Positions 2,057-57,824 of a stretch of DNA of 64,000 nt are shown one piece after another. Numbering within the stretch: the first letter of the stretch is position 1; every line of letters starts with the position of its first letter. Source of the stretch: an uncultured Actinomycetota bacterium. Its GTDB lineage: Bacteria > Actinomycetota > Actinomycetes > Actinomycetales > CAVURS01. The notes beneath the pieces are model-generated. The model ran no database searches, had not been told where the DNA came from, and worked only from the letters and a program-made list of their open reading frames with translations. Both the position numbers and the translations under genes were made by a program. The stretch is from contig CAWCEI010000013.1 of the NCBI GenBank assembly GCA_963794535.1, positions 56,185-120,184 on the forward strand, written 5' to 3'.

Positions 2057-3674
2057 ATGAGCAAGTGGCGCGGCAACCCGTGGGCGATCCTGATCACCCT
2101 GTCCCTCGGCTTCTTCATGACGCTGCTCGACCTGACGATCGTCAACATCGCGATCCCGAGCATGATCACCGCCCTGGGCGCCTCGCTGGACGAGATCCTC
2201 TGGGTGGTCAACGCCTACGTGCTCGTGCTCGCCGTCCTGCTCATCACGGCCGGTCGGCTGGGTGACCTGCGCGGCCAGCGCAAGCTGTTCGTCGCTGGCG
2301 TTGTCGTGTTCACCCTGGCCAGCCTGGCGTGTGGCCTGGCGCCGAACCCGACCCTGCTGATCGCGTTCCGCGCTGTGCAGGGCATCGGTGCCGCGATGCT
2401 GATGCCACAGACGATGGCCATCATCATCGGGACGTTCCCGGCCGAGCGACGTGGCACTGCGCTCGGCATCTGGGGCGCCGTTGCCGGCCTGGCGACGGTG
2501 GCCGGCCCGACTCTTGGCGGTGTCCTGGTGACCTACGCCAGCTGGCGCTGGATCTTCATCGTCAACGTGCCGATCGGTGTGCTCGTCCTGGTCATGACCT
2601 TCGCCTTCATCCCGGACACCCGGATGGAGCGCCAGCACAAGCTCGACCTGGTCGGCGTCGGCCTGGCGACAGCCGGCCTGTTCTGCCTGACCTTCGCGCT
2701 CATCGAGGGCCAGCGCTTCTCCTGGAACGCCGGGATCATGGCGCTGTTCGCTGCGTTCGTGGTGTTCGCCGTGGTCTTCCTGGTGCAACAGCGCGGCCGC
2801 CAGGACGCCGAGCCGCTGGTGCCGTTCTCGTTGTTCAAGAACCGCAACTTCACCGTGATCAACACGGTGGCCTCGCTCGTGTCCGTGGCGATTCTCGGCT
2901 TCTTCCTGCCGATCACGATCTACCTGCAGTCCGTGCTCGGCTACTCCGCCATCAAGGCCGGTCTGATCCTGGCGCCGATGTCACTGATCGCCCTGCTGCT
3001 CGCCCCGATCGCTGGCCGGATGTCGGACCAGATCGGCGGCAAGTTCATCCTGATGACCGGCCTGACCTTGTACGCCGTGGGAGCGCTCGTGCTCACCCTG
3101 CAGGCCCAAGCCGACTCGAGCTGGGTCGAGCTTCCTGCCGGCCGTCGCGATCATGGGTCTGGGCATGGGTGGCATCTGGGCGCCCATGGCGACGGAGGCC
3201 ATGCGCGGCGTGCCGCCGATGCTGGCCGGTGCCGCGGCCGGCGTGAACAACACCCTGCGCCAGGTGGGGTCGGTCGTTGGAAGCGCCGCGGTCGGTGCCC
3301 TGCTGCAGAACCAGCTGGCGACGACATTGCGCGAGGAGGCCATCACGCGGTCGGCCGCTCTCCCGGCGCAGTACCGATCCGGCTTCGTCCAGAGCTTCGC
3401 GGCCAGCGCCAAGGGCGGGATCGAGGTCGGTCCCAGCCAGGTCACGACGGGCGCCGGTGTCCCGGCCGACGTGGCGGCCAAGCTGCACCAGGTCGGTCTC
3501 GCCGTGTTCCAGCACGGATACGTCCGGGCGATGCACCCGACGTTGATCCTGCCCATCGCGGCGGCGTTCGCGGCAGCAGCCATGTGCCTGCTCGCCACCC
3601 GGCACACAACGGGCACCCAGCCCACCGGCCCGGCCAAAGCGGAGGCGCAGAGCGCGCCGGCGGCCCAGGGCTGA
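2057..3674 (+). CDS. MFS transporter, DHA2 (EmrB/QacA-like) family; one apparent frameshift near 3130
   Basis: MFS motifs are present (LDLTIVNIAIPSM, GRLGDLRGQRKLF, AVQGIGAAMLMP). After ~3130 the protein continues in the frame of ORF 3153..3674 (GLGMGGIWAPMATEAMRGVP..NNTLRQVGSVVGSA). Confidence 0.75.
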
Positions 3675-3675
3675 C

Positions 3676-4332
3676 TCAGGTGCGACCGGTCGGCCAGCTC
3701 GCCAGGTAGGCGGGAACCGGCGGGTCGCCGCGCAGGTCCGAGGCCGCCCTCGGCTCGCCCCAGACGTGATGCAGCGGCAGCACGCCGGCCCAGTAGGGCA
3801 GGTCCAGGTCCTCGTCCTGGTCGTCAGGGTCGACGTGGTCGCTGACCTTGAGCGACCACTCCTCGATCGGCAGGGCCAGCACCGAGGTCTGCGCCAGCTC
3901 CTTCTTGGACGGCCCGCGCGAGTCGGCGCCGCGGCCCGGCATCAGGTGCTCCGTGATCACCCCGAGGGCGGCCAGCCGGGCCGGGCCCTTGAGCTCCTCG
4001 CAGCGGCCGAGCAGCATCGCGCTGCGGTAGTTCATCGACGACTCGAACTGGCTGCGCGCCAGCACCAGGCCGTCGACGATGGTGACCGTGAGGCAGGTCG
4101 GCTCGCCCTCGGCCAGCCCGCGGAACAGCCGAGCCCCCGTCGAGCCGTGGCACAGCACGCGGTCACCGTCGCGGGCCACCCCGACCGGTACGACGAACGG
4201 CCAGCCGTCCGTCACCACCGCGAGGTGGCCGATGAGGGCCGAGTCGAGCAGCCGGTCCAGCGCAGCGCGGTCCGAGACCTGCTTCTCGGGAATGCGCCGC
4301 ACCTGGGTGCGGGGAATGTCGGAGCGAGGCAT
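3676..4332 (-). CDS. Pyridoxamine 5'-phosphate oxidase family (FMN-binding split-barrel) protein
   Basis: Intact 218-aa ORF. The pattern LDRLLDSALIGHLAVVTDGWPFVVPVGVARDGDRVLCHGSTG is typical of PPOX-class flavin-binding proteins. It lies 13 nt downstream of the aminotransferase gene on the same strand. Confidence 0.55.
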   Translation of the reverse strand: MPRSDIPRTQVRRIPEKQVSDRAALDRLLDSALIGHLAVVTDGWPFVVPVGVARDGDRVLCHGSTGARLFRGLAEGEPTCLTVTIVDGLVLARSQFESSMNYRSAMLLGRCEELKGPARLAALGVITEHLMPGRGADSRGPSKKELAQTSVLALPIEEWSLKVSDHVDPDDQDEDLDLPYWAGVLPLHHVWGEPRAASDLRGDPPVPAYLASWPTGRT

Positions 4333-4345
4333 CAGATCGCGTGTC

Positions 4346-5743
4346 TCACAGCAGGTTTGACGCCTCGGTGAGGACCCCGCGCAGCATCTGCTCGATGTCG
4401 TCGAACTCGGGCTGGCCGACGATCAGCGGCGGCGCGAGCTGCACGACGGGGTCGCCGCGGTCGTCTGCGCGGCAGTAGATGCCGGCCTCGAACAGCGCCT
4501 TCGAGAGGAAGCCGCGCAGCAGCCGCTCAGCCTCGTCGTCGTCGAAGGTCTCGCGGGTCTCCTTGTTCTTGACCAGCTCGATCCCGTAGAAGTAGCCCTC
4601 GCCGCGGACGTCGCCGACGATCGGGATGTCGAGCAGCTTCTCCAGGGTCGCCCGGAAGCGCGGCGCGTTCTCGTGGACGTGGTCGACGATCCCCTCCCGC
4701 TCGAAGATGTCGAGGTTGGCCATCGCCACCGCAGCGGAGACCGGGTGGCCGCCAAAGGTGTAGCCGTGGGGGAACGACGTCTGTCCCTTCTTGAACGGCT
4801 CGAACAGCCGGTCGCTGGCGATCATCGCGCCGATGGGGGAGTAGCCCGAGGTCATTCCCTTGGCGCAGGTGATGATGTCCGGCGTATAGCCGAAGTCGTT
4901 GCAGGCGAACAGCTCCCCGATCCGGCCGAAGGCGCAGATCACCTCGTCCGAGACGAGCAGGACGTCGTACTCGTCGCAGATCTCGCGGACCCGCTCGAAG
5001 TAGCCGGGCGGCGGCGGGAAGCAGCCGCCGGAGTTCTGCACCGGCTCGAGGAAGACGGCCGCGACGGAGTCGGCTCCCTCGAACTCGATCGCCTCGGCGA
5101 TCCGGTCCGCGGCCCACCGGCCGAACGCCTTGACGTCGTCGCGCAGGTGCTCCGGCGCGCGGTAGTGGTTGGTGTTGGGCACCTTGTGCGCCCCGGGCAC
5201 CAGCGGCTCGAACGGGATCCGCGCCTCGGGGATGCCGGTGATGGACAGCGCACCCTGCGGCGTGCCGTGGTAGGCGATCGCCCGGCTGATGACCTTGTAC
5301 TTGGTCGGCTTGCCCATCAGCTTCCAGTACTGCTTGGCCAGCTTCCAGGCGGTCTCGACGGCCTCGCCGCCGCCGGTGGTGAAGAAGACGCGGTTGAGGT
5401 CGCCCGGCGTCGACTGGGTCAGCCGCTCGGCCAGCTCGATCGCCGGCGGGTGGGCGTAGGACCAGAGCGGGAAGAACCCCAGGTCGCGGGCCTGCTTGGC
5501 CGCGGCCTCGGCCAGCTCCTCGCGACCGTGACCGACCTGGACGACGAACAGCCCGGCCAGGCCGTCGAGGTAGCGCCGGCCCTTGTCGTCGTAGATGTAC
5601 GCGCCCTCACCCCGCACGATGACCGGGACCGAACCGCCGTCCTCGAACGTCGAGTGCCGGGTGAAGTGCATCCACAGGTTGTCGCGAGCGGCGTCGGCGT
5701 ACGGCGTGCCGAGCCGGGTGGTCGAACTGCCTTGCGTGGTCAT
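4346..5743 (-). CDS. Class III PLP-dependent aminotransferase (omega-amine/putrescine-type)
   Basis: Intact 465-aa ORF with class III fold motifs: FFTTGGGEAVETAWK, LVSDEVICAFGRIGELFA and ITCAKGMTSGY (Schiff-base Lys). Confidence 0.85.
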   Translation of the reverse strand: MTTQGSSTTRLGTPYADAARDNLWMHFTRHSTFEDGGSVPVIVRGEGAYIYDDKGRRYLDGLAGLFVVQVGHGREELAEAAAKQARDLGFFPLWSYAHPPAIELAERLTQSTPGDLNRVFFTTGGGEAVETAWKLAKQYWKLMGKPTKYKVISRAIAYHGTPQGALSITGIPEARIPFEPLVPGAHKVPNTNHYRAPEHLRDDVKAFGRWAADRIAEAIEFEGADSVAAVFLEPVQNSGGCFPPPPGYFERVREICDEYDVLLVSDEVICAFGRIGELFACNDFGYTPDIITCAKGMTSGYSPIGAMIASDRLFEPFKKGQTSFPHGYTFGGHPVSAAVAMANLDIFEREGIVDHVHENAPRFRATLEKLLDIPIVGDVRGEGYFYGIELVKNKETRETFDDDEAERLLRGFLSKALFEAGIYCRADDRGDPVVQLAPPLIVGQPEFDDIEQMLRGVLTEASNLL

Positions 5744-6383: not shown

Positions 6384-7829
6384 GTGAGCACCGCCACCCG
6401 CACCTTGCGCAACTTCGTCGACGGGGAGCACGTCGACCCCGCTGACGGGCGGACCATCGACATCATCGACCCGTCGACCGCGCAGGTCGTCGCGACGTCC
6501 CCGGTGTCGGGTGCCGAGGATGTCGACAAGGCGTACGCCGCGGCGGCGAAGGCGTTCGAGGGCTGGCGCGACACCACGCCCAGCGAGCGGCAGAAGGCGC
6601 TGCTCAAGATCGCGGACGCGATCGAGGAGGCCAGCGACGAGCTGGTCAAGCTCGAGGCGCAGAACACCGGCAAGCCCTGGGCCCTGACGGCGAGCGAAGA
6701 GATCCCGCCGATGGTCGACCAGATCCGGTTCTTCGCCGGCGCGGCGCGGGTCCTCGAGGGCCGCGCCTCCGGGGAGTACCTGGCCGGGCACACCAGCTGG
6801 ATCCGGCGCGAGCCGGTCGGTGTCATCGGGCAGGTCGCGCCGTGGAACTACCCGATGATGATGGCCGTCTGGAAGTTCGCCCCCGCGATCGCCGCCGGCA
6901 ACACCGTCGTGCTCAAGCCGAGTGACACGACCCCCGAGACGACGCTGCGCATGGCCGAGATCGCCGCCCAGTTCCTGCCGCCGGGTGTGCTCAACGTCAT
7001 CACCGGCGATCGCGACACCGGCCGCCTGCTCGTCGAACACCCCACTCCCGCAATGGTTTCCATCACCGGCTCGGTGCGAGCAGGCATGGAGGTCGCCGCG
7101 TCGGCGGCCAAGGACGTGAAGCGGGTCCACCTCGAGCTCGGCGGCAAGGCACCGGTCATCGTCTTCGACGACGCCGACGTCGAGGCCGCCGCCGAAGCCA
7201 TCGCCATCGCGGGCTACTTCAACGCGGGACAGGACTGTACGGCGGCGACCCGCGTGCTGGCCGGGCCGCGGGTGCACGACGACTTCGTCGCGGCCCTGGC
7301 CGAGCAGGCCAAGGGTGCGCACGTCGGCAAGCCCGATGACGACGACGCGCTGCTCGGCCCGGTCAACAACGCCGGCCAGCTCGAGCGGGTCTCCGGCTTC
7401 CTGAGCCGGCTGCCGGACCGGGCCGTCCTGCAGGCCGGCGGCCAACGGCTCAGCGAGCTCGGTGACGGCTACTTCCTCTCTCCGGCGGTCGTGTCCGGAG
7501 TCCAGCAGGACGACGAGGTCATCCAGCAGGAGATCTTCGGTCCGGTCATCACGGTCCAGAAGTTCTCCGACGAGGAGGAGGCGCTGCGCTGGGCGAACGG
7601 TGTGCCCTATGCGTTGGCGTCGAGTGTGTGGACCAAGGACTTCGGCCGGGCCATGCGGATGTCGCGACGGCTCGACTTCGGCTGCGTCTGGATCAACACG
7701 CACATCCCGCTCGTGGCCGAGATGCCACACGGCGGGTTCAAGCACAGTGGCTACGGCAAGGACCTGTCGATGTACGGGTTCGAGGACTACACGCGGATCA
7801 AGCACGTCATGGCCAACCTGGACAGCTGA
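6384..7829 (+). CDS. NAD(P)-dependent aldehyde dehydrogenase (aminobutyraldehyde dehydrogenase-like)
   Basis: Intact 481-aa ORF with the ALDH catalytic motifs ELGGKAPVIV and GQDCTAATR. Confidence 0.85.
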   Translation: MSTATRTLRNFVDGEHVDPADGRTIDIIDPSTAQVVATSPVSGAEDVDKAYAAAAKAFEGWRDTTPSERQKALLKIADAIEEASDELVKLEAQNTGKPWALTASEEIPPMVDQIRFFAGAARVLEGRASGEYLAGHTSWIRREPVGVIGQVAPWNYPMMMAVWKFAPAIAAGNTVVLKPSDTTPETTLRMAEIAAQFLPPGVLNVITGDRDTGRLLVEHPTPAMVSITGSVRAGMEVAASAAKDVKRVHLELGGKAPVIVFDDADVEAAAEAIAIAGYFNAGQDCTAATRVLAGPRVHDDFVAALAEQAKGAHVGKPDDDDALLGPVNNAGQLERVSGFLSRLPDRAVLQAGGQRLSELGDGYFLSPAVVSGVQQDDEVIQQEIFGPVITVQKFSDEEEALRWANGVPYALASSVWTKDFGRAMRMSRRLDFGCVWINTHIPLVAEMPHGGFKHSGYGKDLSMYGFEDYTRIKHVMANLDS

Positions 7830-7841
7830 AAGGGCTGATAC

Positions 7842-9377
7842 GTGAACGCTCCCGGTGAGGGGAACGGCACGGCCGCCTGGACCAATGGCTGGTCCCACGA
7901 CCAGCACCAGTGGATCGGCGGGAAGCCTCGCGCTGGCACGTCCGGCGCGCTGCACGACATCGTCGACCCGGCGAACGGCCAGACGCTGCAGTCGGTTTCG
8001 CTCGCCGGCGTCGAGGACGTCGAGGCCGCAGTCGACGCTGCGCGGGCGGCGCAGCCGGAGTGGGGGTCGGCCCCTCCCAGCGCCCGGTCGTCGGCGTTGC
8101 ACCGCCTCGCCGGCCTGCTCGACGAGCGGGCCGAGCTGTTCGCCCAGACCGAGTCGTGGCAGAGCGGCAAGCCGATCCGTCTGGCCCGGGAGTTCGACGT
8201 GCCGGGCACCGTGGACAACACGGCGTTCTTCGCCGGCGCCGCCCGCACTCTCGAGGGCCGCGCGGCGGGGGAGTACAGCCCGGACCACACGTCCGCCGTA
8301 CGCCGCGAGCCGGTCGGCATCGTCGGCTCCATCGCCCCGTGGAACTACCCGCTGCAGATGGCCGCGTGGAAGGTCCTGCCCGCTGTCGCGGCCGGCAACG
8401 CGATCGTGCTCAAGCCCAGCGAGCTCACCCCGCTGACCGCCCTGATGTTCGCCGAGGCCTGCTCCGACGCGGGGATCCCCGACGGCGTGGTCAACGTGCT
8501 CACCGGCGCCGGCCAGGTCGCGGGCGAGGCGCTGATCTCGCACCCGGACGTCGACATGGTCTCCTTCACCGGCTCCAGCGGCGTGGGCCGCCGGGTCATG
8601 GAGCTCGCCTCGGCCACGTCGAAGCGGGTCCATCTCGAGCTCGGCGGCAAGGCCCCCTTCGTCGTCCTGGACGACGCCGACCTCGAGGCTGCGGTGCACG
8701 GAGCCGTGGCCGGCGCGTTGATCAACTCCGGTCAGGACTGCACCGCGGCGACGAGGGCGATCGTCCACCGGTCGCTGGTCGACGACTTCGTCGCCGGGGT
8801 CGCCGACCTGATGTCCGCGGTGCGCCTGGGTGACCCGCGCGACACCGCCACGGACCTCGGGCCGCTGGTCTCAGCCGCACATGCCGCCCGGGTGGCCGGT
8901 CACGTCGACCGGGCCCGGGACGAGGGACACAAGATCGTCTGCGGTGGTTCCGCGCCCGGTGGTGCGCTGGCGGCCGGTGCCTACTACCAGCCCACGCTGG
9001 TCGTGGTCGACGGCCCGCAGGCGCGGATCTGGCGCGAGGAGGTCTTCGGCCCGGTGCTCGCGGTCCTGGCTGCGGATGATGACGATTCGGCTTTCGCCCT
9101 GGCGAACGACACGCCGTACGGGTTGGCTGCGTCGGTGTGGACTCGCGACATCTTCCGGGCCCAGCGCGGAACGCGGGAGATCCAGGCCGGCTGCGTCTGG
9201 GTCAACGACCACATCCCGATCATCAGCGAGATGCCGCACGGCGGCTACAAGGCATCGGGCTTCGGCAAGGACATGAGCATCTACTCGCTGGAGGAGTACA
9301 CGAACATCAAGCACGTGATGTCGGACATCACCGGAGTAGCCCGCAAGCCCTGGCACCGAACCGTTTTCACTCTCTGA
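7842..9377 (+). CDS. Aldehyde dehydrogenase family protein (second, tandem copy)
   Basis: Intact 511-aa ORF with ELGGKAPFVV and SGQDCTAATR motifs. It starts 12 nt after the first ALDH. Confidence 0.85.
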   Translation: MNAPGEGNGTAAWTNGWSHDQHQWIGGKPRAGTSGALHDIVDPANGQTLQSVSLAGVEDVEAAVDAARAAQPEWGSAPPSARSSALHRLAGLLDERAELFAQTESWQSGKPIRLAREFDVPGTVDNTAFFAGAARTLEGRAAGEYSPDHTSAVRREPVGIVGSIAPWNYPLQMAAWKVLPAVAAGNAIVLKPSELTPLTALMFAEACSDAGIPDGVVNVLTGAGQVAGEALISHPDVDMVSFTGSSGVGRRVMELASATSKRVHLELGGKAPFVVLDDADLEAAVHGAVAGALINSGQDCTAATRAIVHRSLVDDFVAGVADLMSAVRLGDPRDTATDLGPLVSAAHAARVAGHVDRARDEGHKIVCGGSAPGGALAAGAYYQPTLVVVDGPQARIWREEVFGPVLAVLAADDDDSAFALANDTPYGLAASVWTRDIFRAQRGTREIQAGCVWVNDHIPIISEMPHGGYKASGFGKDMSIYSLEEYTNIKHVMSDITGVARKPWHRTVFTL

Positions 9378-25229: not shown

Positions 25230-26618
25230 GCTGGTGCGAGAGCCAGGGCCAGCACGTCGAGGGCCTCCTCGAGCAACGCCTCGGGGATCACCAGCGGCGG
25301 CAGGAAGCGCAGCACGTTGCCGTAGGTCCCACAGGTCAGAGTCAGCACGCCACGCTGGTGGCAGGCCGAGGAGATCCGGCCGGCCTCAGCGGCGTCCGGC
25401 GTCCGGGTGCCCGGCTTCACGATCTCGATCGCCAGCATCGCGCCGCGCCCGCGCACGTCGCCGATCTGCGGGAACTGCTCGGCCAGCTCGGTGCAGCCGC
25501 GGGATCATGATCGACTCGATGTTCTTGGCCCGCCCGGGCAGGTCCTCCGTCGCCATCGCGTCGATCGAGGCTAGGGCCGCGGCGCAGGCGACCGGGTTGC
25601 CGCCGTAGGTCCCACCCAAGCCACCCGCGTGCACCGAGTCCATCAGCTCGGCCCGGCCGGTCAGGGCGGCGAGCGGCAGGCCACCGGCGATGCCCTTCGC
25701 CGTGGTGATCAGGTCGGGCACGACGCCCTCGTGCTGGCAGGCGAACATCGCGCCGGTGCGGCCGAAGCCGGTCTGGATCTCGTCGGCGACGAAGACGACC
25801 CCGTTGGCAGTGCACCACTCGGAGATCGCGGTCAGGAACCCCGGAGCCGGCACGACGAAACCGCCCTCGCCCTGGATCGGCTCGATGACGACACAGGCGA
25901 CCTGGTCCGCGCCGACCTGCTTCTCGATCACGTCGATGGCCCGAGCCGCGGCGGCCGACCCGGAGATGACCGCAGGCTCGCGGAACGGGTAGGACAGCGG
26001 TGCGCGGTAGACCTCACCGGCGAACGGCCCGAAGCCGTGCTTGTACGGCATCGACTTGGCGGTCATCGCCATCGTCAGGTTCGTGCGCCCGTGGTAGGCG
26101 TGGTCGAAGACGACGACGGCGTCGCGGCCGGTCGCGATCCGGGAGACCTTGACGGCGTTCTCGACGGCCTCGGCGCCTGAGTTGAACAGCGCCGAGCGCT
26201 TCTCGTGACCGCCCGGGGTCAGCCGGTTGAGCGCCTCGCAGACGGACACGTACCCGTCGTACGGCGTGACCATGAAGCAGGTGTGGGTGAACGCCGCGAC
26301 CTGCTCCTGCACGGCCGCGACGACGCGCGGGTGCGCGTTGCCGGCGTTGACGACCGCGATCCCGGCGCCGAGGTCGATCAGCGAGTTGCCGTCGACGTCG
26401 ACCAGGACACCACCGCCCGCCCGGTCGATGTAGATCGGCAACGTGCTGCCGACGCCCTTGGCCACCGCCGACACCCGGCGCTCGTGGATCGCCCGGGACA
26501 GGGGGCCGGGGATCTCGGTGACGAGCCGCCGCTCCTGGGTCAGGTCGGGGCCGCCCAGTCGGGCGGGGGGAGGGGTGCTGGAGCCGGGTGCGGTGATGGT
26601 CTCGCTCATAGCGGCCAC
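25226..26618 (-). CDS. gabT: 4-aminobutyrate--2-oxoglutarate transaminase; one apparent frameshift near 25500
   Basis: Class III aminotransferase with FVADEIQTGFGRTGAMFA and LITTAKGIAGGLPL. The C-terminus continues in ORF 25226..25456 (..RGAMLAIEIVKPGT..GTYGNVLRFLPPLVI). Convergent with gabD. Confidence 0.85.
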
Positions 26619-26770: not shown

Positions 26771-28249
26771 GTGACTGCATCGTCTGTCCTGACCGACCGC
26801 GAGGCCGACCTGGTCGGGCGCGTCCCCACCGGTCTGCTGGTCGGTGGTGAGTGGCGCCCCGCCGACTCGGGCGGCACGCTCCCGGTCGACGACCCCTCGA
26901 CCGGTGAGGTCATCGCCGAGGTCGCCGACGCCAGCGTCGCCGACGGCAAGGCGGCCCTGGACTCCGCGGTGGCCCACCAGGAGGAGTGGGCGGCAACGGC
27001 TCCCCGCGAGCGCGGTGAGATCCTGCGCCGGGCCTTCGAGCTGATCACCGCCCGCGCCGAGGACCTGGCGACGGTCATGACCCTCGAGATGGGCAAGCCG
27101 CTCGCCGAGTCCCGCGGGGAGATCGCCTACGGCGCCGAGTTCTTCCGCTGGTTCTCCGAGGAGGCCGTGCGGATCGCCGGCCGGTTCTCCACCTCGCCCG
27201 ACGGCAAGACCCGGCTGCTCACCATGAAGGCGCCGGTCGGCCCGACGCTGATGATCACGCCGTGGAACTTCCCGCTGGCGATGGGCACCCGCAAGATCGG
27301 CCCCGCCATCGCGGCCGGCTGCACGATGGTCGTCAAGCCGGCCAGCCAGACCCCGCTGACGATGCTGTCGCTGGCCGCGATCATGAGCGAGGCCGGCCTG
27401 CCGGACGGCGTCCTCAACGTCATCACCACCAAGCACACGGGCGACGTCATGGAGCCGCTGATCCGCGACTCCCGGCTGCGCAAGCTGACCTTCACCGGCT
27501 CCACCGAGGTGGGCCGCCGCCTGGTCGAGCAGTCGGCCGAGCAGCTGCTCCGCGTCTCGATGGAGCTTGGCGGCAACGCCCCGTTCCTCGTGTTCGAGGA
27601 CGCCGACCTGGACGCCGCGATCGAGGGCGCGATGCTGGCCAAGATGCGCAACATCGGCGAGGCCTGTACGGCGGCGAACCGGTTCATCGTCCACGAGTCG
27701 ATCGCGACCGAGTTCTCCGCGCGGCTGGCCGACCGGATGGGCGCGATGAAGGTCGGCCGGGGCACCGAGGACGGCGTCCAGGTCGGGCCGCTGGTCGACG
27801 AGAAGAGCCGGGACAAGGTGGCCGAGCTGGTCCAGGACGCGGTCGACGCCGGCGGCAAGGTCGCGACCGGCGGGACGGCGCTGGGCGAGCGGGGCTGGTT
27901 CTACGCCCCGACCGTGCTGACCGGCGTACCGGCATCGGCCCGGGTCTTCGGCGAGGAGATCTTCGGCCCGGTGGCCCCGATCACGACCTTCGACACGGAC
28001 GACGAGGCGCTGCGGCTGGCCAACGACACCGAGTACGGCCTGGTCGCCTACGCCTTCACCCGCGACCTGTCCCGCGCGCTGGCCGTCGCCGAGGGCCTGG
28101 ACACCGGGATGGTCGGCATCAACCAGGGCATCGTCTCCAACCCGGCCGCGCCGTTCGGCGGGGTCAAGGCCTCGGGTTTCGGCCGCGAAGGCGGCACCGA
28201 AGGCATCGAGGAGTACCTCGAGACCAAGTACGTGGGCATAAAGCCCTAA
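26771..28249 (+). CDS. gabD: NAD(P)-dependent succinate-semialdehyde dehydrogenase
   Basis: Intact 492-aa ALDH with MELGGNAPFLVF and GEACTAANR motifs. It neighbours gabT. Confidence 0.85.
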   Translation: MTASSVLTDREADLVGRVPTGLLVGGEWRPADSGGTLPVDDPSTGEVIAEVADASVADGKAALDSAVAHQEEWAATAPRERGEILRRAFELITARAEDLATVMTLEMGKPLAESRGEIAYGAEFFRWFSEEAVRIAGRFSTSPDGKTRLLTMKAPVGPTLMITPWNFPLAMGTRKIGPAIAAGCTMVVKPASQTPLTMLSLAAIMSEAGLPDGVLNVITTKHTGDVMEPLIRDSRLRKLTFTGSTEVGRRLVEQSAEQLLRVSMELGGNAPFLVFEDADLDAAIEGAMLAKMRNIGEACTAANRFIVHESIATEFSARLADRMGAMKVGRGTEDGVQVGPLVDEKSRDKVAELVQDAVDAGGKVATGGTALGERGWFYAPTVLTGVPASARVFGEEIFGPVAPITTFDTDDEALRLANDTEYGLVAYAFTRDLSRALAVAEGLDTGMVGINQGIVSNPAAPFGGVKASGFGREGGTEGIEEYLETKYVGIKP

Positions 28250-28264
28250 CCGGGCATAGCCCGG
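28250..28264 (+). terminator. Short GC hairpin directly after the gabD stop (possible terminator)
   Basis: CCGGGC-ata-GCCCGG begins 1 nt after the TAA. No U-tract follows. Confidence 0.3.
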
Positions 28265-28360
28265 TGAATCGTCTAGTCGACCGATTCCGAAGTATCTAGA
28301 CACCCATCCGCCGGGCGGGTGAAGTCGGAACGGGTGTGCTCAAAACTGCTGCGTATAACC

Positions 28361-28424
28361 CTGCGTTGCCCTCTCATTGCTCTCAGCGACCCAGCTTTCC
28401 CGCTGGGTTCATCCGAGGGAGGGG
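28361..28424 (+). promoter_or_regulatory. Leader module A: conserved box, hairpin and strong SD (paralogous to module B)
   Basis: The conserved box GTTGC-N-CT-N-TCATTGC-N-C-N-CAGCGACCC is followed by the hairpin ACCCAGC/GCTGGGT (28389-28408) and by TCCGAGGGAGGGG. CCCTC at 28369-28373 can pair with the SD. Confidence 0.45.
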
Positions 28425-28430
28425 TAGACC

Positions 28431-28535
28431 ATGAAGAAGTCGTCCACGGTCGTCACGGTGGTTCGCTGGTCGGCCAGCGTCGCACCGGTCGTCGCGCTGG
28501 TGTCGGTGCTCGGCGCCGGCATGAAGTGGTACTGA
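28431..28535 (+). CDS. Micro-ORF A1, 34 aa hydrophobic peptide ending GMKWY
   Basis: ATG lies 6 nt after GGGAGGGG. The peptide is MKKSSTVVTVVRWSASVAPVVALVSVLGAGMKWY, and nearly all codons end in G/C. It is below the 60-aa threshold of the ORF track. Confidence 0.4.
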   Translation: MKKSSTVVTVVRWSASVAPVVALVSVLGAGMKWY

Positions 28536-28540
28536 TCGGT

Positions 28541-28600
28541 ATGCGTCGTCAGGAGACGGGTGCCGCCGAGGAGCAGATCCCCGGCTACAAGTGGGTCTGA
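28541..28600 (+). CDS. Micro-ORF A2, 19 aa peptide ending PGYKWV
   Basis: MRRQETGAAEEQIPGYKWV, stop TGA. It shares the 17-nt CCCCGGCTACAAGTGGG with micro-ORF B. Confidence 0.3.
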   Translation: MRRQETGAAEEQIPGYKWV

Positions 28601-28798
28601 GCCCGCGCACCGCTCAAACGCCGTACGACACCAGCTCCTCCCGCTCCAGCGACACGTCGCTGAGCGGGGGGAGCTGTTGCTTTCCCCGGCAACTACCTAG
28701 CCATCAGCCGGCCTTTTCGGTCGCGAATAACTACCTGCGGGTAGACCGGTTGAGTGATGTTCGGGCGGATGTCCGGAATCCGACTGCGCGCTCACCCA

Positions 28799-28857
28799 CG
28801 GTTGCGCTGTCATTGCACACAGCGACCCGATCACTCGTTGGGTCTGTCCGGGAGGGG
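28799..28857 (+). promoter_or_regulatory. Leader module B (paralogue of module A)
   Basis: Matches module A at 24 of the first 28 aligned positions, followed by the hairpin GACCC../..GGGTC (28824-28844) and TCCGGGAGGGG. Confidence 0.45.
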
Positions 28858-28862
28858 TTCGA

Positions 28863-28928
28863 GTGAAGTCGTTGAACGATGGGCCTGGTTGCGCCGACGC
28901 GCGCACCCCCGGCTACAAGTGGGCGTGA
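28863..28928 (+). CDS. Micro-ORF B, 21 aa peptide ending PGYKWA
   Basis: GTG lies 5 nt after GGGAGGGG. The peptide is (M)KSLNDGPGCADARTPGYKWA. Its stop TGA (28926-28928) overlaps GTG 28925, a candidate start of the downstream gene. Confidence 0.35.
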   Translation: MKSLNDGPGCADARTPGYKWA

Positions 28929-31060
28929 AGGCAGGACCTTCCGGGACCGGCACGCGCCGGGTCTTCGTCGTGCCCTCCAACCTCACGCCTGTTCGTCGCC
29001 GGCATCGGTGCGGCCGGCTTCGCCCTCGCCGCTCTGGTGCTGCACGGCCTGGACCTCCAGACGCTCGTCGCCAACGTCCCCGTGCCCGGGCTGGCTGCTC
29101 GTCGTCGGCCTGATCCTGGGCGAGCTCGGCCCGATCCCGGTGTCGCGGGGTGACGACGAGACCTCGAACATCACGATGTCGACGACCTTCGCCGTCGCGC
29201 TCGTGGCGACCGGCCCGTTCGCCCTGCTGCTCGCGGCGCACACCGCCGCCGTCCTGATGGACGACCTGCGCACCAAGCGCCGCCCGGTGAAGATGATCTT
29301 CAACTTCGGCGAGTACGCGCTGTCGCTGGCGGCGGCCCGGCTGGTCTTCTCCCAGCTCACCGGGCAGGGCTTCCTGGCGCCGTACACGACGTACAAGGCC
29401 TCGGACCTGGTGCCGACCCTGCTGGCCGGCTTCACCTTCATGGTCATCAACAACGGCCTCGTGGCCATCGTGGTCGCGATGGCCAGCGGCCAGCCGGTCA
29501 TCGAGATGCTGCGCGACGACCTGGCCTTCACGATGGAGACCTCGGCCGTCCTCGTCGGCCTGTCCGGCGTCGCGGCCGTGCTGGCCCAGACCAGCGGCTG
29601 GATGCTCCCGCTGCTCGCCATGCCCGTTCTCGCCGTACGGCGATCGGCCGTGCTGGCCGCGGCCCGCCAGACCCAGGCGATGCGGGACGCCCTGACCGGG
29701 CTCGGCAACCGCGCCCTGTTCTTCAGCCGGACCGACCGGCTGCTGTCCCGGTTCGAACGGTACGGCGACTCGGTGGCGGTCCTGATGATGGACCTGGACC
29801 ACTTCAAGGACATCAACGACACCCTCGGCCACCAGGTCGGGGACCGGGTCATCCAGGCCGTCGCCGGCCGGATCGCCTACCTCGGCGGTGAGCTCGGCTG
29901 CGTCGCGCGGCTGGGCGGCGACGAGTTCGCCGTCGCGCTGTCCGGCGTGGACGCCGCCGCCGCTGGAGCCGTCGCCGAGACCCTGCTGGCCGACGTCGTC
30001 CGCCCGCTGCAGATCGGCGGCACCCGGATGGCGATCCAGGCCAGCGTCGGCATCGCGATGGCCGAGAAGGGCGTCGACGTCACCACCCTGATGCAGCGCG
30101 CCGACATCGCGCTCTACGAGGCCAAGCAGGACCGGGCCCGCTGGTGCCTGTTCGACGAGAGCGTCACGCCGACCACCCCCGAGCTGGGCCTGCTGGCCGA
30201 CCTGCGCGAGGCGCTCGAGAAGGGCGACCTGTCGGTGGCCTTCCAGCCCCAGGTCGGCCTGAGCGACGGCCGGGTCACCGGCGCCGAGGCGCTGGCCCGC
30301 TGGAAGCACCCCGAGCGCGGCTACATCCCGCCCTCGGACTTCATCATCCTGGCCGAGAACACCGGCCTGATCAGCCAGGTCACGGACGTCGTGCTGGAGG
30401 AGACCCTCAGCGCCCTGGCCGAGTGGAACCGGCAGGGCCTGTCCTGCCCGGTCTCGGTCAACCTGTCGGCCCGCCAGCTGGCCGACCTCAGCCTGCCCGA
30501 GCGGGTGAGCGCGGCCCTGCGCCGGCACAACATCCCGGCCGGAATGCTGACCGTCGAGGTGACCGAGAGCTCGATCCTCGGCGACCCGCGCCGGGCCGGC
30601 CAGATCCTGCACGAGCTGCGCCAGGAGGGCGTCCGGATCGCGGTCGACGACTTCGGCACCGGCTACTCCTCGCTGGCCTACCTGCAGCGGCTGGACCTCG
30701 ACGAGCTCAAGATCGACCGGAGCTTCGTGCAGTCGATGTGCCTCGTCGCGCGCGACGACGTGCTGGTCCGCTCGATCATCGAGCTGGCGCACAACCTCGG
30801 CCTCTCGGTCGTCGCCGAGGGCGTCGAAGCCTCGATCCAGGTCGACCGGCTGCGCGAGCTGTCCTGCGACGCGGCTCAGGGCTACTACCTGGGCCGCCCG
30901 ATGGACCGCGACCTGATGACCGCCTGGCTGCAGCGCGACGCCCTCCTGGGCTCGACCCGCCAGCACCACCACAACGAGCCGGTGGCGGCGCACACGCCGC
31001 CCAGCTCCGGCCGAGCGGCCGTACCTGCGCGCCGTCGGCATGTCCGGAACGGATGGCTGA
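28925..31060 (+). CDS. Membrane-anchored GGDEF-EAL (diguanylate cyclase/phosphodiesterase) protein; ends uncertain, 2-3 apparent frameshifts
   Basis: Multi-TM N-terminal domain (..LGPIPVSRGDDETSNITMSTTFAVALVATGPF..), GGDEF motif RLGGDEFAV, and EAL domain (EALARW, DDFGTGYSSL, KIDRSF, AEGVE). The first ~70 aa of track ORF 28879.. look out of frame, while TM-like LFVAGIGAAGFALAALVLHGL lies in another frame. The as-sequenced frame runs to 31230, but a +1 frame stops at 31058-31060, 3 nt before the next gene. Confidence 0.75.
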
Positions 31061-31063
31061 CCC

Positions 31064-31654
31064 ATGCTGATCGCCGCTCTCGTCGTACTCGCCATCCTGA
31101 CCGTCCCGCTCTCCGGGGGCCGCTGGTCCAACCTCGCCGCGTTCCGGCCGCGCGCCACGTGGCTGCTGTGGCTGGCCCTGGGCATCCAGGTCGTGCAGTT
31201 CACCTTCCTCGACCTGGGCCGGGCCAGTGACGCGGTGCACGTCGGCACCTACCTGCTCGCGGCGGCGTTCCTGGCCGTCAACTTCCGTGTCCAGGGCGTA
31301 TGGCTGGTCGCGCTCGGTGGCTTCGCCAACGGCCTGACCATCACCCTCAACCACGGCACGCTGCCGGCCCGGGCGGCCGCCCTGCGCGCGGCCGGGCTGC
31401 GGGTCGACCGGGACGAGTTCGTCAACTCCGGGGTCATGGCGCACGCCAAGCTGCGCTGGCTCGGCGACGTCTTCTACGTGCCCAAGGGCTTCCCGCTGGC
31501 CAATGTCTTCAGCGTGGGCGACGTGCTGCTGGTCGTGGGTGCCTTCGTCGTGGTGCACTCGCTGGCCCGGCGCAGCCCGGCCGAGGCGCCCGCACCGGCC
31601 CGCGTCGGGGATGCGCCAGAATCGGCGGGTGCCACCGAGCCCGCGTCCGCCTGA
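31064..31654 (+). CDS. DUF5317 family membrane protein
   Basis: Intact 196-aa ORF with 4-5 TM segments. The motifs [14 protein letters not shown] and [24 protein letters not shown] match DUF5317 as I recall the family. Confidence 0.6.
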
Positions 31655-32859
31655 CGCACCTCAGCCCGCCCACCCGCGACGGGTGGCGCTGCTCGGCTCG
31701 ACCGGCTCGGTCGGCCAGCAGGCGATCGACGTCGTTCTCGCGGCACCGGACCGGTTCGAGATCGTGGCCCTTTCGGCCGGCGGCTCGGACCCCAAAGTCC
31801 TTGCGGCGCAGGCGGTTCGACTCGGCGTACCGGTCGTCGGTGTGGCTCGGGAGTCGGCGGTCGAGCCGCTGCGGGCCGCTCTCGCCGACGCGCTGACCGC
31901 GGCCGGCTCCTCCGGGCGGTCGCTGCCCGAGGTCGTGGCCGGACCGGACGCCGCCACCGAGCTGGCCCGGGTCGACTGCGACATCGTCCTCAACGCGATC
32001 ACCGGGTCGGTCGGCCTGGCGCCCACGCTGGCGGCGCTCGGCGCCGGGCGGCTGCTCGCGCTGGCCAACAAGGAGTCGCTCATCGTCGGGGGGTCCCTGG
32101 TGACGGCCGCGGCGGCGCCGGGCCAGATCGTGCCGGTCGACTCCGAGCACTCGGCGCTGGCCCAGTGCCTGCGCGGGGGCAGTCCTGACGAGGTGCGCCG
32201 GCTGGTCCTCACGGCCAGCGGTGGGCCGTTCCGCGGTCGCACCCGCGAGTCGCTCGCCGGCGTCACGCCCCAACAGGCCCTGGCCCACCCGACCTGGGAC
32301 ATGGGTCCGGTGATCACGACCAACTCCGCCACCTTGGTCAACAAGGGGCTGGAGGTGATCGAGGCGCACCTGCTCTTCGGCATCGGCTTCGACCGGATCG
32401 ACGTCGTGGTGCACCCGCAGTCGATCGTGCACTCGATGGTCGAGTTCACCGACGGGTCGACCCTGGCCCAGTGCTCGCCGCCGGACATGCGGCTGCCGAT
32501 CGCGCTGGCCCTCGGCTGGCCGGACCGGGTGCCCGGCGCGGCCGCCGGCTGCGACTGGACGACGGCCTCGACCTGGGAGTTCCTGCCGCTGGACGACGCG
32601 GCGTTCCCGGCGGTGCGGCTGGCCCGGGAGGTCGGGGCCGCCGGGCGGACCTATCCGGCGGTCTACAACGCGGCCAACGAGGAGTGCGTGGCGGCCTTCC
32701 ACGCCGGGCGGCTGCCCTTCCTCGGCATCGTCGACACCGTGGCGGCCGTCGTCGCCGAGCACGAGGCGCCGGCCGGCGAGCTGACCCTGGACGGCCGTGC
32801 TGGCCGCCGAGACCTGGGCGCGGGGCCAGGTGGCAACCCGACTGGCGGGCATCGCCTGA
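31611..32859 (+). CDS. dxr: 1-deoxy-D-xylulose-5-phosphate reductoisomerase; one apparent frameshift near 32797
   Basis: [35 protein letters not shown] and [10 protein letters not shown] motifs. After ..ELTLDG the true tail [20 protein letters not shown]-stop (32857-32859) is in another frame; as sequenced the ORF reads through into rseP. The start (ATG 31611 or GTG 31629) is uncertain. Confidence 0.85.
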
Positions 32860-32885
32860 GCCGCTCGGCGTGTGACCATGGAGGG

Positions 32886-34232
32886 GTGACAGCACTGCTC
32901 TACGTGCTCGGCATCCTGGCGTTCGCCGCGGCCATCGCGGTCTCGATCGGGCTGCACGAGATCGGCCACCTCGTGCCGGCCAAGCGGTTCGGCGTCCGGG
33001 TGACGCAGTACATGATCGGGTTCGGCCCCACCCTGTGGTCGCGTCAGCGCGGCGAGACCGAGTACGGCGTCAAGGCGATCCCGCTCGGCGGCTACATCCG
33101 GATGATCGGCATGTTCCCGCCCAAGCGCGGTGAGGACCCGCGGTTCGTGCGCCGGGCCTCGACCGGCCGGATGTCGCTGCTGGCCGACCAGGCCCGCACC
33201 CAGTCGATGGAGGAGCTCCAGCCAGGCGACGAGCGCCGGGTCTTCTACAAGCTGTCGGTGCCCAAGAAGGTCGTCGTGATGATGGGCGGCCCGACGATGA
33301 ACCTGGTCATCGCCGCCGTGCTGCTCACGATCACCACCACGCTCCTCGGCGTGCCGACCGCGACGACGACCCTCGGCACGGTCAGCGACTGCGTGCTGCC
33401 GGCGAGCTCGGCCGCCAGACGCGACCTGCCAGCCGAGCGACCCCAAGGCTCCGGCGTCCGCAGCCGGGCTGAAGCCCGGCGACCGGATCGTGTCCTACAA
33501 CGGCGTCCCGGTCACCAGCTGGGACCAGCTGCACGACGCGATCCGGGTCAGCAGTGGCATGGCCGTGCCGATCGTCGTACGCCGCGGGGGCCAGGACGTC
33601 GCGCTGCAGATCACTCCGCTCGCTCACCGAGCGGCCCGTCGTCGACAGCCGGGGCAACGTCGAGAAGACCGCCACCGGCGCGGTCGCGGACCGAGCAGGT
33701 CGGCTTCCTCGGCGTCTCGCCGACCCAGGACCTCGAGCGGCAGTCGGTCACGACCGTGCCCGGGGTCATCTGGCAGGGGCTGAGCGGCACGGCCTCGGTC
33801 GTCCTGCGGATCCCGCAGAAGATGGTGGGCGTCGCCCAGGCGGCGTTCGGCTCGGGCGAGCGCGACCCCAACGGCCCGGTGAGCATCGTCGGCGTCGGCC
33901 GGATCACCGGCGAGGCGACCAGCAACGCGCCGGACTCCGGCTACGGCTTCCGCGGCTGGCTGATCTTCTTCTTCGGCGTCATCGCCGCGCTCAACATCGC
34001 GCTGTTCGTCTTCAACCTGATCCCGTTGCTGCCGCTGGACGGCGGGCACGTCGCGGGCGCGCTCTGGGAGGGGCTGCGGCGCACGGTCGCCCGGGTCCGG
34101 CACCGGGCCGACCCCGGCCCGACCGACGTCGCGCGGCTGCTGCCGATCGCGTACGCCGCGAGCGCCGTGCTGATCCTGATGTCGGTGCTGCTGATCTACG
34201 CCGACCTCGTCAACCCGATCAAGCTCGGCTGA
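32886..34232 (+). CDS. Site-2 (M50) zinc metalloprotease, RseP/Rip1-like; about 3 apparent frameshifts
   Basis: GTG follows GGAGGGG. It has the HExxH motif [11 protein letters not shown], a PDZ segment ([22 protein letters not shown]) in another frame, and the C-terminal [12 protein letters not shown] motif. Confidence 0.8.
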
Positions 34233-57556: not shown

Positions 57557-57824
57557 TCGGTCTTTCCCGGCCGGTGGACCCCTGTGGCGACCGGCCCGCA
57601 CCACACAACTGAATATCGCTAGATAGCCAGAATTACCCAAGGAACGAACCAGGGACGTCGGCCCAACGCCGCGCCGGTCCTCGGTAGTGGCCTCCGGGAG
57701 CTGCGCGGCGCAAGCCGCAGCCGCCCGTGGGCCTCGATCGAAGACCGGGCAATCACGCCGTCGGTGCCGTCGCTCCCGTCAACCAGCCCGGGCATGGATG
57801 CCCGGGCCAGAACGGAGGCGACCC
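57557..57824 (+). promoter_or_regulatory. pnp 5' leader (Actino-pnp-type autoregulatory region, tentative)
   Basis: A ~270-nt untranslated spacer lies between rpsO and pnp. A perfect 10-bp inverted repeat GCCCGGGCAT-GG-ATGCCCGGGC (57786-57807) sits just upstream of the GGAGG SD of pnp. Confidence 0.45.

Follow-up and report, generated by a model that had tools for sequence, protein, structure and literature searches.

We analysed a 64 kb stretch of contig CAWCEI010000013.1 from an uncultured Actinomycetota bacterium (hereafter the window, in whose coordinates all positions are given), and in particular the region between gabD and a gene for a MASE9-GGDEF-EAL enzyme of cyclic di-GMP (c-di-GMP) turnover. 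As judged by sequence comparison with about 25 related loci (designated by the letter L, with L001-L007 obtained via enzyme orthologues), this region is a conserved pair of small genes, T1 and T2, each ending in Gly-x-Lys-Trp. T1 is, according to hydropathy and structure prediction, a small (<50 aa) protein with one transmembrane-like helix. The reading that we favour, and to which we give about an even chance, is that T1 and T2 are real micro-proteins that would act in trans on the adjoining membrane sensor and would be translationally coupled to it. In the lineage of the window the pair appears to have been duplicated, with module A as a putative stand-alone bicistronic unit that is closed by a terminator-like hairpin.

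Two small genes with a common C-terminal motif

The earlier note on this DNA had reported three unannotated micro open reading frames (micro-ORFs), A1, A2 and B, which are called T1-A, T2-A and the module-B ORF here. Their coordinates and sequences were confirmed (Table 1), as was the clustering of their endings: the K-W-x-stop pattern AARTGGNNNTGA was found three times in the window, always within 28524-28928, when 0.16 occurrences were expected and three were never reached in shuffled sequences. An all-frame scan showed that these three were the only ORFs in the window ending in G-x-K-W. The 28-nt box that the note had seen upstream of both modules was also real, since the pattern GTTGCNCTNTCATTGCNCNCAGCGACCC occurred exactly twice in the 64 kb (28365-28392 and 28801-28828) against 0.00 expected from shuffles, and a repeat finder recovered both paralogous pairs, one of 35 nt with 80% identity and one of 42 nt with 79%. 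The note had cautioned that the contig was prone to insertions and deletions. This was justified for the enzyme gene, which does contain 1-nt insertions, and did not apply to the micro-ORFs: three independent metagenome contigs from the Joint Genome Institute (L049-L051), which share ~95% identity with 28240-29120, likewise have module A, the hairpin between the modules and the short module-B ORF, and the micro-ORFs are therefore not products of indels in this contig. The pair of K-W-ending ORFs, which the note had proposed to look for in related genomes, was present in related loci.

T1 was 30-38 aa long, with a single hydrophobic helix and the end GAG-x-K-W plus 0-3 residues. Typical members read MKKSS..VRWSA.VAP.VALVSVLGAGSKW[YFHWC], and members of more distant clades read MTEWLTRRTVQGGTSVTTLAVLVAVVGAGSKWW and MKQSLKTTIVRGAVSAATVVTLASVVGAGVKWW. 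The N-terminus mostly had a net positive charge, and Kyte-Doolittle hydropathy over an 18-residue window was 1.6-2.1 (1.86 for T1-A). The AlphaFold2 model of T1-A was a single continuous helix from residue 3 to residue 32 with a mean predicted local distance difference test (pLDDT) score of 82.8. T2 was 13-29 aa long and hydrophilic, with an N-terminus that was free to vary in both length and sequence. Its end was [T/V/A/L]-P-G-Y-K-W-[V/I/A/T] in most loci and G-[Y/H/F/K]-K-W plus 0-1 residue overall, the variants being PGYKW-stop (L044), PGHKWA (L049-L051), PGFKWS (L035) and HGKKWS (L045/L046). The feature shared by all of these ORFs was thus a C-terminal G-x-K-W followed by 0-3 residues, or by six in L020.

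A profile search of 5.8 billion (5.8e9) proteins, started from a 34-aa alignment whose first sequence had been extended by a 5-residue in-frame upstream pad, returned a T1 family of 15 clusters with lengths of 33-46 aa. In an exhaustive HMMER search, 1.84 billion representatives yielded just a handful more small proteins, with the ends AGSKW, AGSNW, GAGVKWQ or GAGSKWW. Gene callers had predicted T1 sporadically and had always missed T2. No family in Pfam or NCBIfam matched any of the three peptides (YoaJ, at E = 0.53, was noise), no Rfam entry described them, and the literature that could be searched gave no relevant match for the strings PGYKW, GAGSKW, GYKWV and GSKWW or for DUF5317, the family of a membrane protein encoded downstream.

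The pattern of substitutions indicated that the peptides themselves are under constraint, as the earlier note had proposed from the different codons used for the same ending. The ratio of nonsynonymous to synonymous substitution rates (dN/dS) for T1 lay at 0.08-0.25 among close relatives, and comparing the window with L049 gave 0.20. For T2 it was 0.3-0.7, and about 0.3 in the comparison with L049. Within PGYKW, proline was encoded by CCC or CCG and glycine by all four codons (GGC, GGT, GGA and GGG), and in GAG-x-KW the Gly, Ser, Leu and Val codons varied synonymously. Selection on T2 falls on its last ~5 residues. A lower-GC relative (L048, GCA_942492725.1) had two tandem T1-like ORFs at 2300-2513, with the ends VVGAGTKWMGH and VVGAGKKWAR, and no T2. 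This suggests that T2 derived from a duplicate of T1, and T2 may be a degenerate T1 paralogue.

Two modules were present in the window, L001, L016, L018 and L049-L051. In the window they are separated by a long hairpin, which spans 28632-28676 without its tail and has a predicted free energy of -48.6 kcal/mol (z = -6.35). L001 and L018 had hairpins that match it in length and position and differ from it in sequence, and in module-A copies the hairpin began 22-32 nt past the stop codon. It is probably a terminator-like element of which the structure rather than the sequence is conserved. The earlier note had singled out a third copy of CAGCGAC here as part of a palindrome. This did not hold up, as that copy is the tip of the long hairpin and is conserved neither in the closest relatives (GAGCGAC in L049) nor in L001 and L018. 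The consensus scan called no sigma-70 promoter and no canonical terminator in the region; for the hairpin this is because its U-tract is poor, the tail being merely TTGCTTT.

The module-B ORF of the window was most simply read as a fusion. L001 had a full T1 and a full T2 at the homologous place in its module B, and L049-L051 had the same short ORF as the window, ending in PGHKWA. An internal deletion in the window and its closest relatives would have joined the start of T1 (M/V-K-S..) to the end of T2 (..TPG[Y/H]KWA). The product retained the start codon, the G-x-K-W end and the overlap with the start of the enzyme gene. A second, independent natural T1/T2 fusion (P0135, 46 aa, on an ENA contig of 576 nt) likewise kept a T1 start and a PGYKW end; the two could be of use as deletion mutants made by nature.

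Linkage and probable coupling to a c-di-GMP enzyme

We scanned 185,579 species genomes with a pattern that demanded both endings, AAGTGG-N48-78-CCNGGNTAYAARTGGNNNTRA. It matched 16 genomes, of which 12 were Actinomycetota with both ORFs intact; the other four were chance matches in unrelated bacteria, with no such ORFs and with neither the enzyme gene nor a DUF5317 gene. The same pattern in a metagenome collection gave 20 matches, three of them true loci. Enzyme orthologues that were more distant carried the variant T2 ends of L044 and of L045/L046. By tblastn, an orthologous MASE9-GGDEF-EAL gene came directly after the pair in all true genome loci, mostly with DUF5317 behind it, and the pair lay directly 5' of the same enzyme wherever the contig permitted the check. 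The tie to the c-di-GMP gene that the earlier note had drawn from the window was thus found in every locus checked. It was kept even though the flanking genes change, from gabT-gabD and dxr to glgB and ald in L007 and to other genes in L044-L046 and L048.

The junctions between the genes were tight. A strong Shine-Dalgarno (SD) sequence, GGGAGGGG or GAAGGAG, preceded T1 in all modules. The T1 stop and the T2 start were arranged as TGA-N5-ATG in most loci and were 1-2 nt apart in others. The T2 stop overlapped the enzyme start as ATGA or GTGA in L013, L017, L019 and module B of the window, where GTG 28925 is the likely enzyme start, and lay 8-34 nt ahead of it in L001, L002, L003 and L007. In L045/L046 the enzyme started about 90 nt further on, so that the T2-to-enzyme spacing ranged from -4 to about +90 nt. 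The enzyme had an SD of its own in L045, L046 and L008, and several other enzyme genes had none. Translational coupling is accordingly plausible from the arrangement of the codons, and would be common without being universal. Two other ideas were rejected: reading through the stop codon to link T2 with the enzyme, because their relative frame is not kept constant (L001, L002, L003 and L007), and a role for AAGTGG as the SD of the next cistron, because its distance to the following start varies.

The named hosts were Angustibacter and Aquipuribacter, both of them cultured; the window itself belongs to an actinobacterium akin to Angustibacter (Kineosporiales). L017 (NZ_JAXHCD010000001.1), deposited as 'Jannaschia sp. 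R86511', has an alphaproteobacterial name and an actinobacterial T1-T2-enzyme-DUF5317 locus with 76.5% GC, and it falls together with Aquipuribacter (L013, L019), so that the organism appears to be misnamed. In L006 the orthologous intergenic region, which is peptide-less, had several copies of a short repeat (GCCCTGTAACGA / GCCCTGCAACGA / GCGCTGTGACG) at 3590-3760.

Possible modes of action

We infer that both ORFs are translated and that the ancestral unit consisted of a promoter/leader block, a strong SD, T1, T2, the MASE9-GGDEF-EAL gene and usually DUF5317. Translation would probably be relayed from the strong T1 SD via the abutting or overlapping stop and start codons, and peptide and enzyme would consequently be co-produced. 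T1 could serve as an extra helix that packs on the transmembrane bundle of MASE9 (or of DUF5317), T2 could bind through the same G-x-K-W end, as a short motif, and the two would jointly set or gate how the diguanylate cyclase and phosphodiesterase activities are balanced. Action in trans is favoured because T1, as a transmembrane helix, is under constraint from end to end, because stand-alone copies of the pair closed by a terminator-like hairpin are conserved, because the spacing to the enzyme varies, and because the association is exclusive to one sensor family. A further reason is that the authors who defined MASE9 proposed that a ligand is bound within the membrane.

Small membrane proteins that modulate membrane sensors include MgrB with PhoQ, SafA with PhoQ and AcrZ with AcrB. 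The locus resembles these in a size of <50 aa, a single-pass helical form, a gene linked to a membrane signalling protein and a presumed helix-helix contact. It differs in that two peptides with a common C-terminal G-x-K-W would be encoded inside the sensor's own operon and translationally coupled to it, and that a MASE9-GGDEF-EAL enzyme takes the place of the histidine kinase or pump as the candidate target. Sensor-attached small membrane proteins and coupled upstream mini-cistrons are known in kind; what appears to be new is the arrangement of two peptides with a shared motif on a c-di-GMP enzyme.

Several observations weigh against action in trans on the sensor. Enzyme orthologues without the peptides exist (L006 and L047), and in A. 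aerolatus (L005) a divergent T1 occurs without a T2, so the peptides are dispensable for the enzyme as such. In some loci, L003 and L044, the pair occurs without a DUF5317 gene. Rather than a plain terminator, the hairpin of module A might be an attenuator that is subject to regulation. Finally, most of T2 is almost neutral, with only the ~5 residues beside the stop fixed, and this is equally expected of a cis-acting nascent-peptide signal.

Such a signal is what the earlier note had preferred, namely peptide-dependent control of the downstream enzyme by stalling or coupling. Spelled out, a nascent G-x-K-W-x would slow termination at a stop codon that is nearly always UGA, and the paused ribosome would govern either re-initiation from T1 to T2 to the enzyme or read-through of the module-A hairpin. 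TnaC is a peptide that stalls termination at UGA. So is PepNL (PMC11890864), and TnaC, SecM and PepNL resemble the present ORFs in being short, in having conserved residues beside a UGA stop and in lying directly before the regulated gene. The invariant residues within 1-2 codons of the stop, next to a T2 N-terminus that varies in length and sequence, agree with this, as do the abutting or overlapping stop and start codons and the several enzyme genes without an SD of their own. By a hand tally, 40 of 41 T1/T2 stops were TGA, compared with about 75% in the long ORFs of the window, an excess that is weak because the sequences are related and because the ATGA/GTGA overlaps force TGA. Against a leader acting in cis, the constraint on T1 covers the entire transmembrane helix and not only the end of the peptide. 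Module-A copies have no downstream cistron, preceding a terminator-like hairpin rather than a gene, and at its distance from the stop that hairpin would be out of reach of the terminating ribosome. The spacing between T2 and the enzyme is too variable to fit easily, some enzymes do have their own SD, and the residue after the tryptophan may be missing altogether (T1 of L003, T2 of L044). There was no similarity to known arrest peptides, and no conserved structure that would occlude the SD or act as an anti-terminator. We therefore consider a purely cis-acting leader rather unlikely. Of the control that the note had proposed, the coupling part is plausible, and the pure stalling leader is disfavoured by the full-length constraint on T1, the conserved stand-alone module A and the variable spacing; the alternative that the note had mentioned, functional small peptides, fits better.

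Export is another route by which the conserved ends could act. T1 resembles, by eye, a Sec-type signal peptide with a K/R n-region, an h-region and a GAG c-region, followed by S/V-K-W-x, and processed G-x-K-W peptides might be sensed by MASE9 from outside or within the membrane as an autocrine or quorum input. In the Phr, SHP and ComS pro-peptides, the active part is at the extreme C-terminus, which is also the conserved part of both T1 and T2; these systems likewise have ORFs of 15-45 aa beside a sensor gene, and ComS/XIP has a Trp as well. The peptide genes here adjoin a membrane sensor gene, and additional stand-alone copies exist. T2, however, has no signal sequence, the LAGSKW of L003 fits the -3/-1 rule poorly, and no exporter, protease or other processing gene was linked to the pair. 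In addition, the neighbouring sensor is a membrane c-di-GMP enzyme, with no cytoplasmic RRNPP receptor next to the peptide genes. Two invariant Asp residues that lie 18 apart in the DUF5317 alignment (LGD and SVGD) raised the idea of an intramembrane aspartyl protease, LspA-like or of the GxGD type, that might process T1. It found no support, as hhalign gave a probability of 0.6% against LspA and neither a sequence nor a Foldseek fold match was found in the PDB. Secreted pro-peptides of this kind are in our view improbable. To a related proposal, that the G-x-K-W peptides are the cognate ligands of MASE9, we also give only a small chance: T1, possibly cleaved, and T2 would deliver a K-W peptide in or at the membrane and switch the enzyme between c-di-GMP synthesis and degradation. 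The remaining explanations fare worse. An essential structured RNA leader or riboswitch, with the ORFs incidental, would account for the conserved non-coding blocks and hairpins upstream of T1, and is very unlikely given the codon-periodic constraint in the ORFs, just five weak consensus base pairs, and leader hairpins with stems averaging 5.8 bp over all modules compared with about 4.7 bp for shuffled sequence. Nor was sequestration of the SD supported; the earlier note had proposed that CCCTC pairs with the SD, whose mean unpaired probability was 0.37, compared with 0.34 when the upstream sequence was shuffled. As the note had surmised, no named riboswitch or leader was recognised, since Rfam 15 gave no relevant match at gathering or permissive thresholds (the best in the micro-ORF region was a miRNA model at E = 0.41). 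A type I toxin-like locus, with T1 as a small peptide that damages membranes, a structured 5' leader and the tandem duplication frequent in such loci, agrees with the small hydrophobic peptide, the duplicated modules with their conserved leader and the strong 3' hairpin. It seems highly improbable because the orientation is constant, the place directly 5' of a single enzyme family does not change and T1 appears to be coupled to the enzyme, because genomes with a single module have no terminator between peptides and enzyme, and because neither an antisense RNA candidate nor an Rfam match was found. We give almost no weight to precursors of ribosomally synthesised and post-translationally modified peptides altered at Y, K or W. 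The ORFs here are short and do have a conserved aromatic or Lys C-terminus, but the Pfam content of the contexts showed no maturase-like gene (radical SAM, P450, YcaO and the like) in any locus, in keeping with what the earlier note had seen in the window, and the neighbours were gabT, gabD, the enzyme, DUF5317, dxr, rseP or unrelated genes.

We know of no input established for MASE9, or for most other MASE-type sensors. If T1 and T2 act in trans on the sensor, the locus would provide a concrete candidate partner of MASE9, a conserved operon-encoded transmembrane micro-protein together with a second peptide that has the same 4-residue C-terminal motif. If they were its ligands, c-di-GMP signalling would have a self-encoded peptide input, possibly one between cells, which would be the first to be defined for any MASE9 domain; if they acted in cis, G-x-K-W-stop would represent a novel control motif linked to termination. 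In each case an unannotated family of small proteins is added. The stand-alone duplicates, T1/T2 fusions, T1-only loci and peptide-less loci offer a ready-made mutational series.

Upstream blocks and neighbouring genes

Table 1. Features of the micro-ORF region and the two following genes, in window coordinates
Feature	Position	Strand	Description or basis
Module A upstream conserved block	28349..28392	+	CTGCGT, pseudo-palindrome TAACCCTGCGTTG (28356-28368, TNAC-N5-GT) and box 28365-28392 with TCATTGC
Mini-hairpin within box	28377..28389	+	TTGCT-CTC-AGCGA; RNAalifold, 5 pairs
5'-leader hairpin of module A	28388..28409	+	GACCCAGC / GCTGGGTT; 8-bp stem
T1-A SD	28417..28424	+	GGGAGGGG; read directly from sequence
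T1-A, putative micro-protein gene	28431..28535	+	34 aa, MKKSSTVVTVVRWSASVAPVVALVSVLGAGMKWY; family of 15 clusters, dN/dS, hydropathy, AlphaFold2 helix
T2-A, putative micro-peptide gene	28541..28600	+	19 aa, MRRQETGAAEEQIPGYKWV; ATG 5 nt past T1 stop; conserved PGYKW-x end in at least 16 loci
Inter-module terminator-like hairpin	28632..28685	+	20-bp stem, tail GTTGCTTTCC; separates modules A and B
Module B upstream conserved block	28784..28828	+	CTGCGC, TCACCCACGGTTG (28792-28804) and box 28801-28828
5'-leader hairpin of module B	28824..28844	+	GACCCGAT / GTTGGGTC; stem shorter in L049-L051
Module-B SD	28850..28857	+	GGGAGGGG; read directly from sequence
Module-B ORF	28863..28928	+	21 aa, VKSLNDGPGCADARTPGYKWA; probable deletion fusion of T1 start and T2 end
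MASE9-GGDEF-EAL gene	28925..31230	+	Pfam: MASE9, GGDEF, EAL; motifs GGDEF, EALAR and DDFG intact
DUF5317 membrane protein gene	31064..31654	+	Pfam E = 3.9e-23; usual fourth gene of the unit

Upstream of T1, an alignment of 18 modules revealed four elements: a distal block GCGCCGTTCGGGTGA, the motif TNAC-N5-GT, the box core TCA[AT]T, and, ~20 nt ahead of the SD, a hairpin whose sequence varies. The block of module A could be aligned across about 13 of the 18 modules, and that of module B was the same in L049-L051 except for three bases. Within the box, one pair of the mini-hairpin persisted across 10 modules in the form of UA, UG or CG, which is little covariation and gives weak support for the structure. 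The leader hairpins that the earlier note had described do exist, recur at the same place with different sequence in other modules and show one compensatory C-G to U-A change in L049-L051; across modules, the stems were only slightly longer than in shuffled sequences.

The conserved TCA[AT]T and TNAC blocks fit no promoter type known to us. The TNAC-N5-GT motif was compared with the BldD box, a 13-bp pseudo-palindrome with the consensus TNAC(N)5GTNA that forms the operators of BldD-(c-di-GMP) at Streptomyces c-di-GMP genes, including cdgA and cdgB (PMC4151990). It was found at a fixed place in 13 of the 18 modules, with full matches in L013 and L019, and module A of L001 reads TCACGCTGCGTCG where the canonical box reads TCACGCTGCGTGA. 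In contrast, the second half-site was mostly imperfect, the same position in L045/L046 reads TTGACT, like a -35 element, and the motif by itself occurred at chance frequency in the window (the copy there being TAACCCTGCGTTG). No bldD was found in the locus sequences examined, whole genomes not having been scanned for it. The resemblance to the BldD box is a lead only.

The gene order in the window was gabT (on the reverse strand), gabD, the micro-ORF region, MASE9-GGDEF-EAL, DUF5317, dxr, rseP and ispG. The reading frame of the enzyme was broken by 1-nt insertions at 28987 and 29088, as seen by comparison with L049-L051 and P0001, and a third frame problem near 31010-31060 lets the enzyme ORF extend across the DUF5317 start; the true stop is probably near 31060. 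These breaks look like assembly indels. DUF5317 gave a confident AlphaFold2 model (pLDDT 88.8) that had no Foldseek match in the PDB (nothing below E = 6.7), and its invariant polar residues were Q42, N73, N89, N96, N121, S122, D135, N147 and D153. This small membrane protein may have an uncharacterised fold or activity.

Further observations concerned genes outside the unit. The genes dxr and rseP, the latter encoding an M50 protease, formed a single 909-aa ORF at 31503-34232 and are separate in L001-L006; the joined ORF is probably another indel or lost stop of this contig. The gabT gene (25253-26561) was split between frames in tblastn, and weak tblastn matches indicated two more aldehyde-dehydrogenase (gabD-like) paralogues at 6414-9317 and an aminotransferase-like gene at 4418-5440. 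The sole Rfam match at the gathering level in the window was an Actino-pnp RNA leader (RF01688) at 57673-57749, with 59.9 bits.

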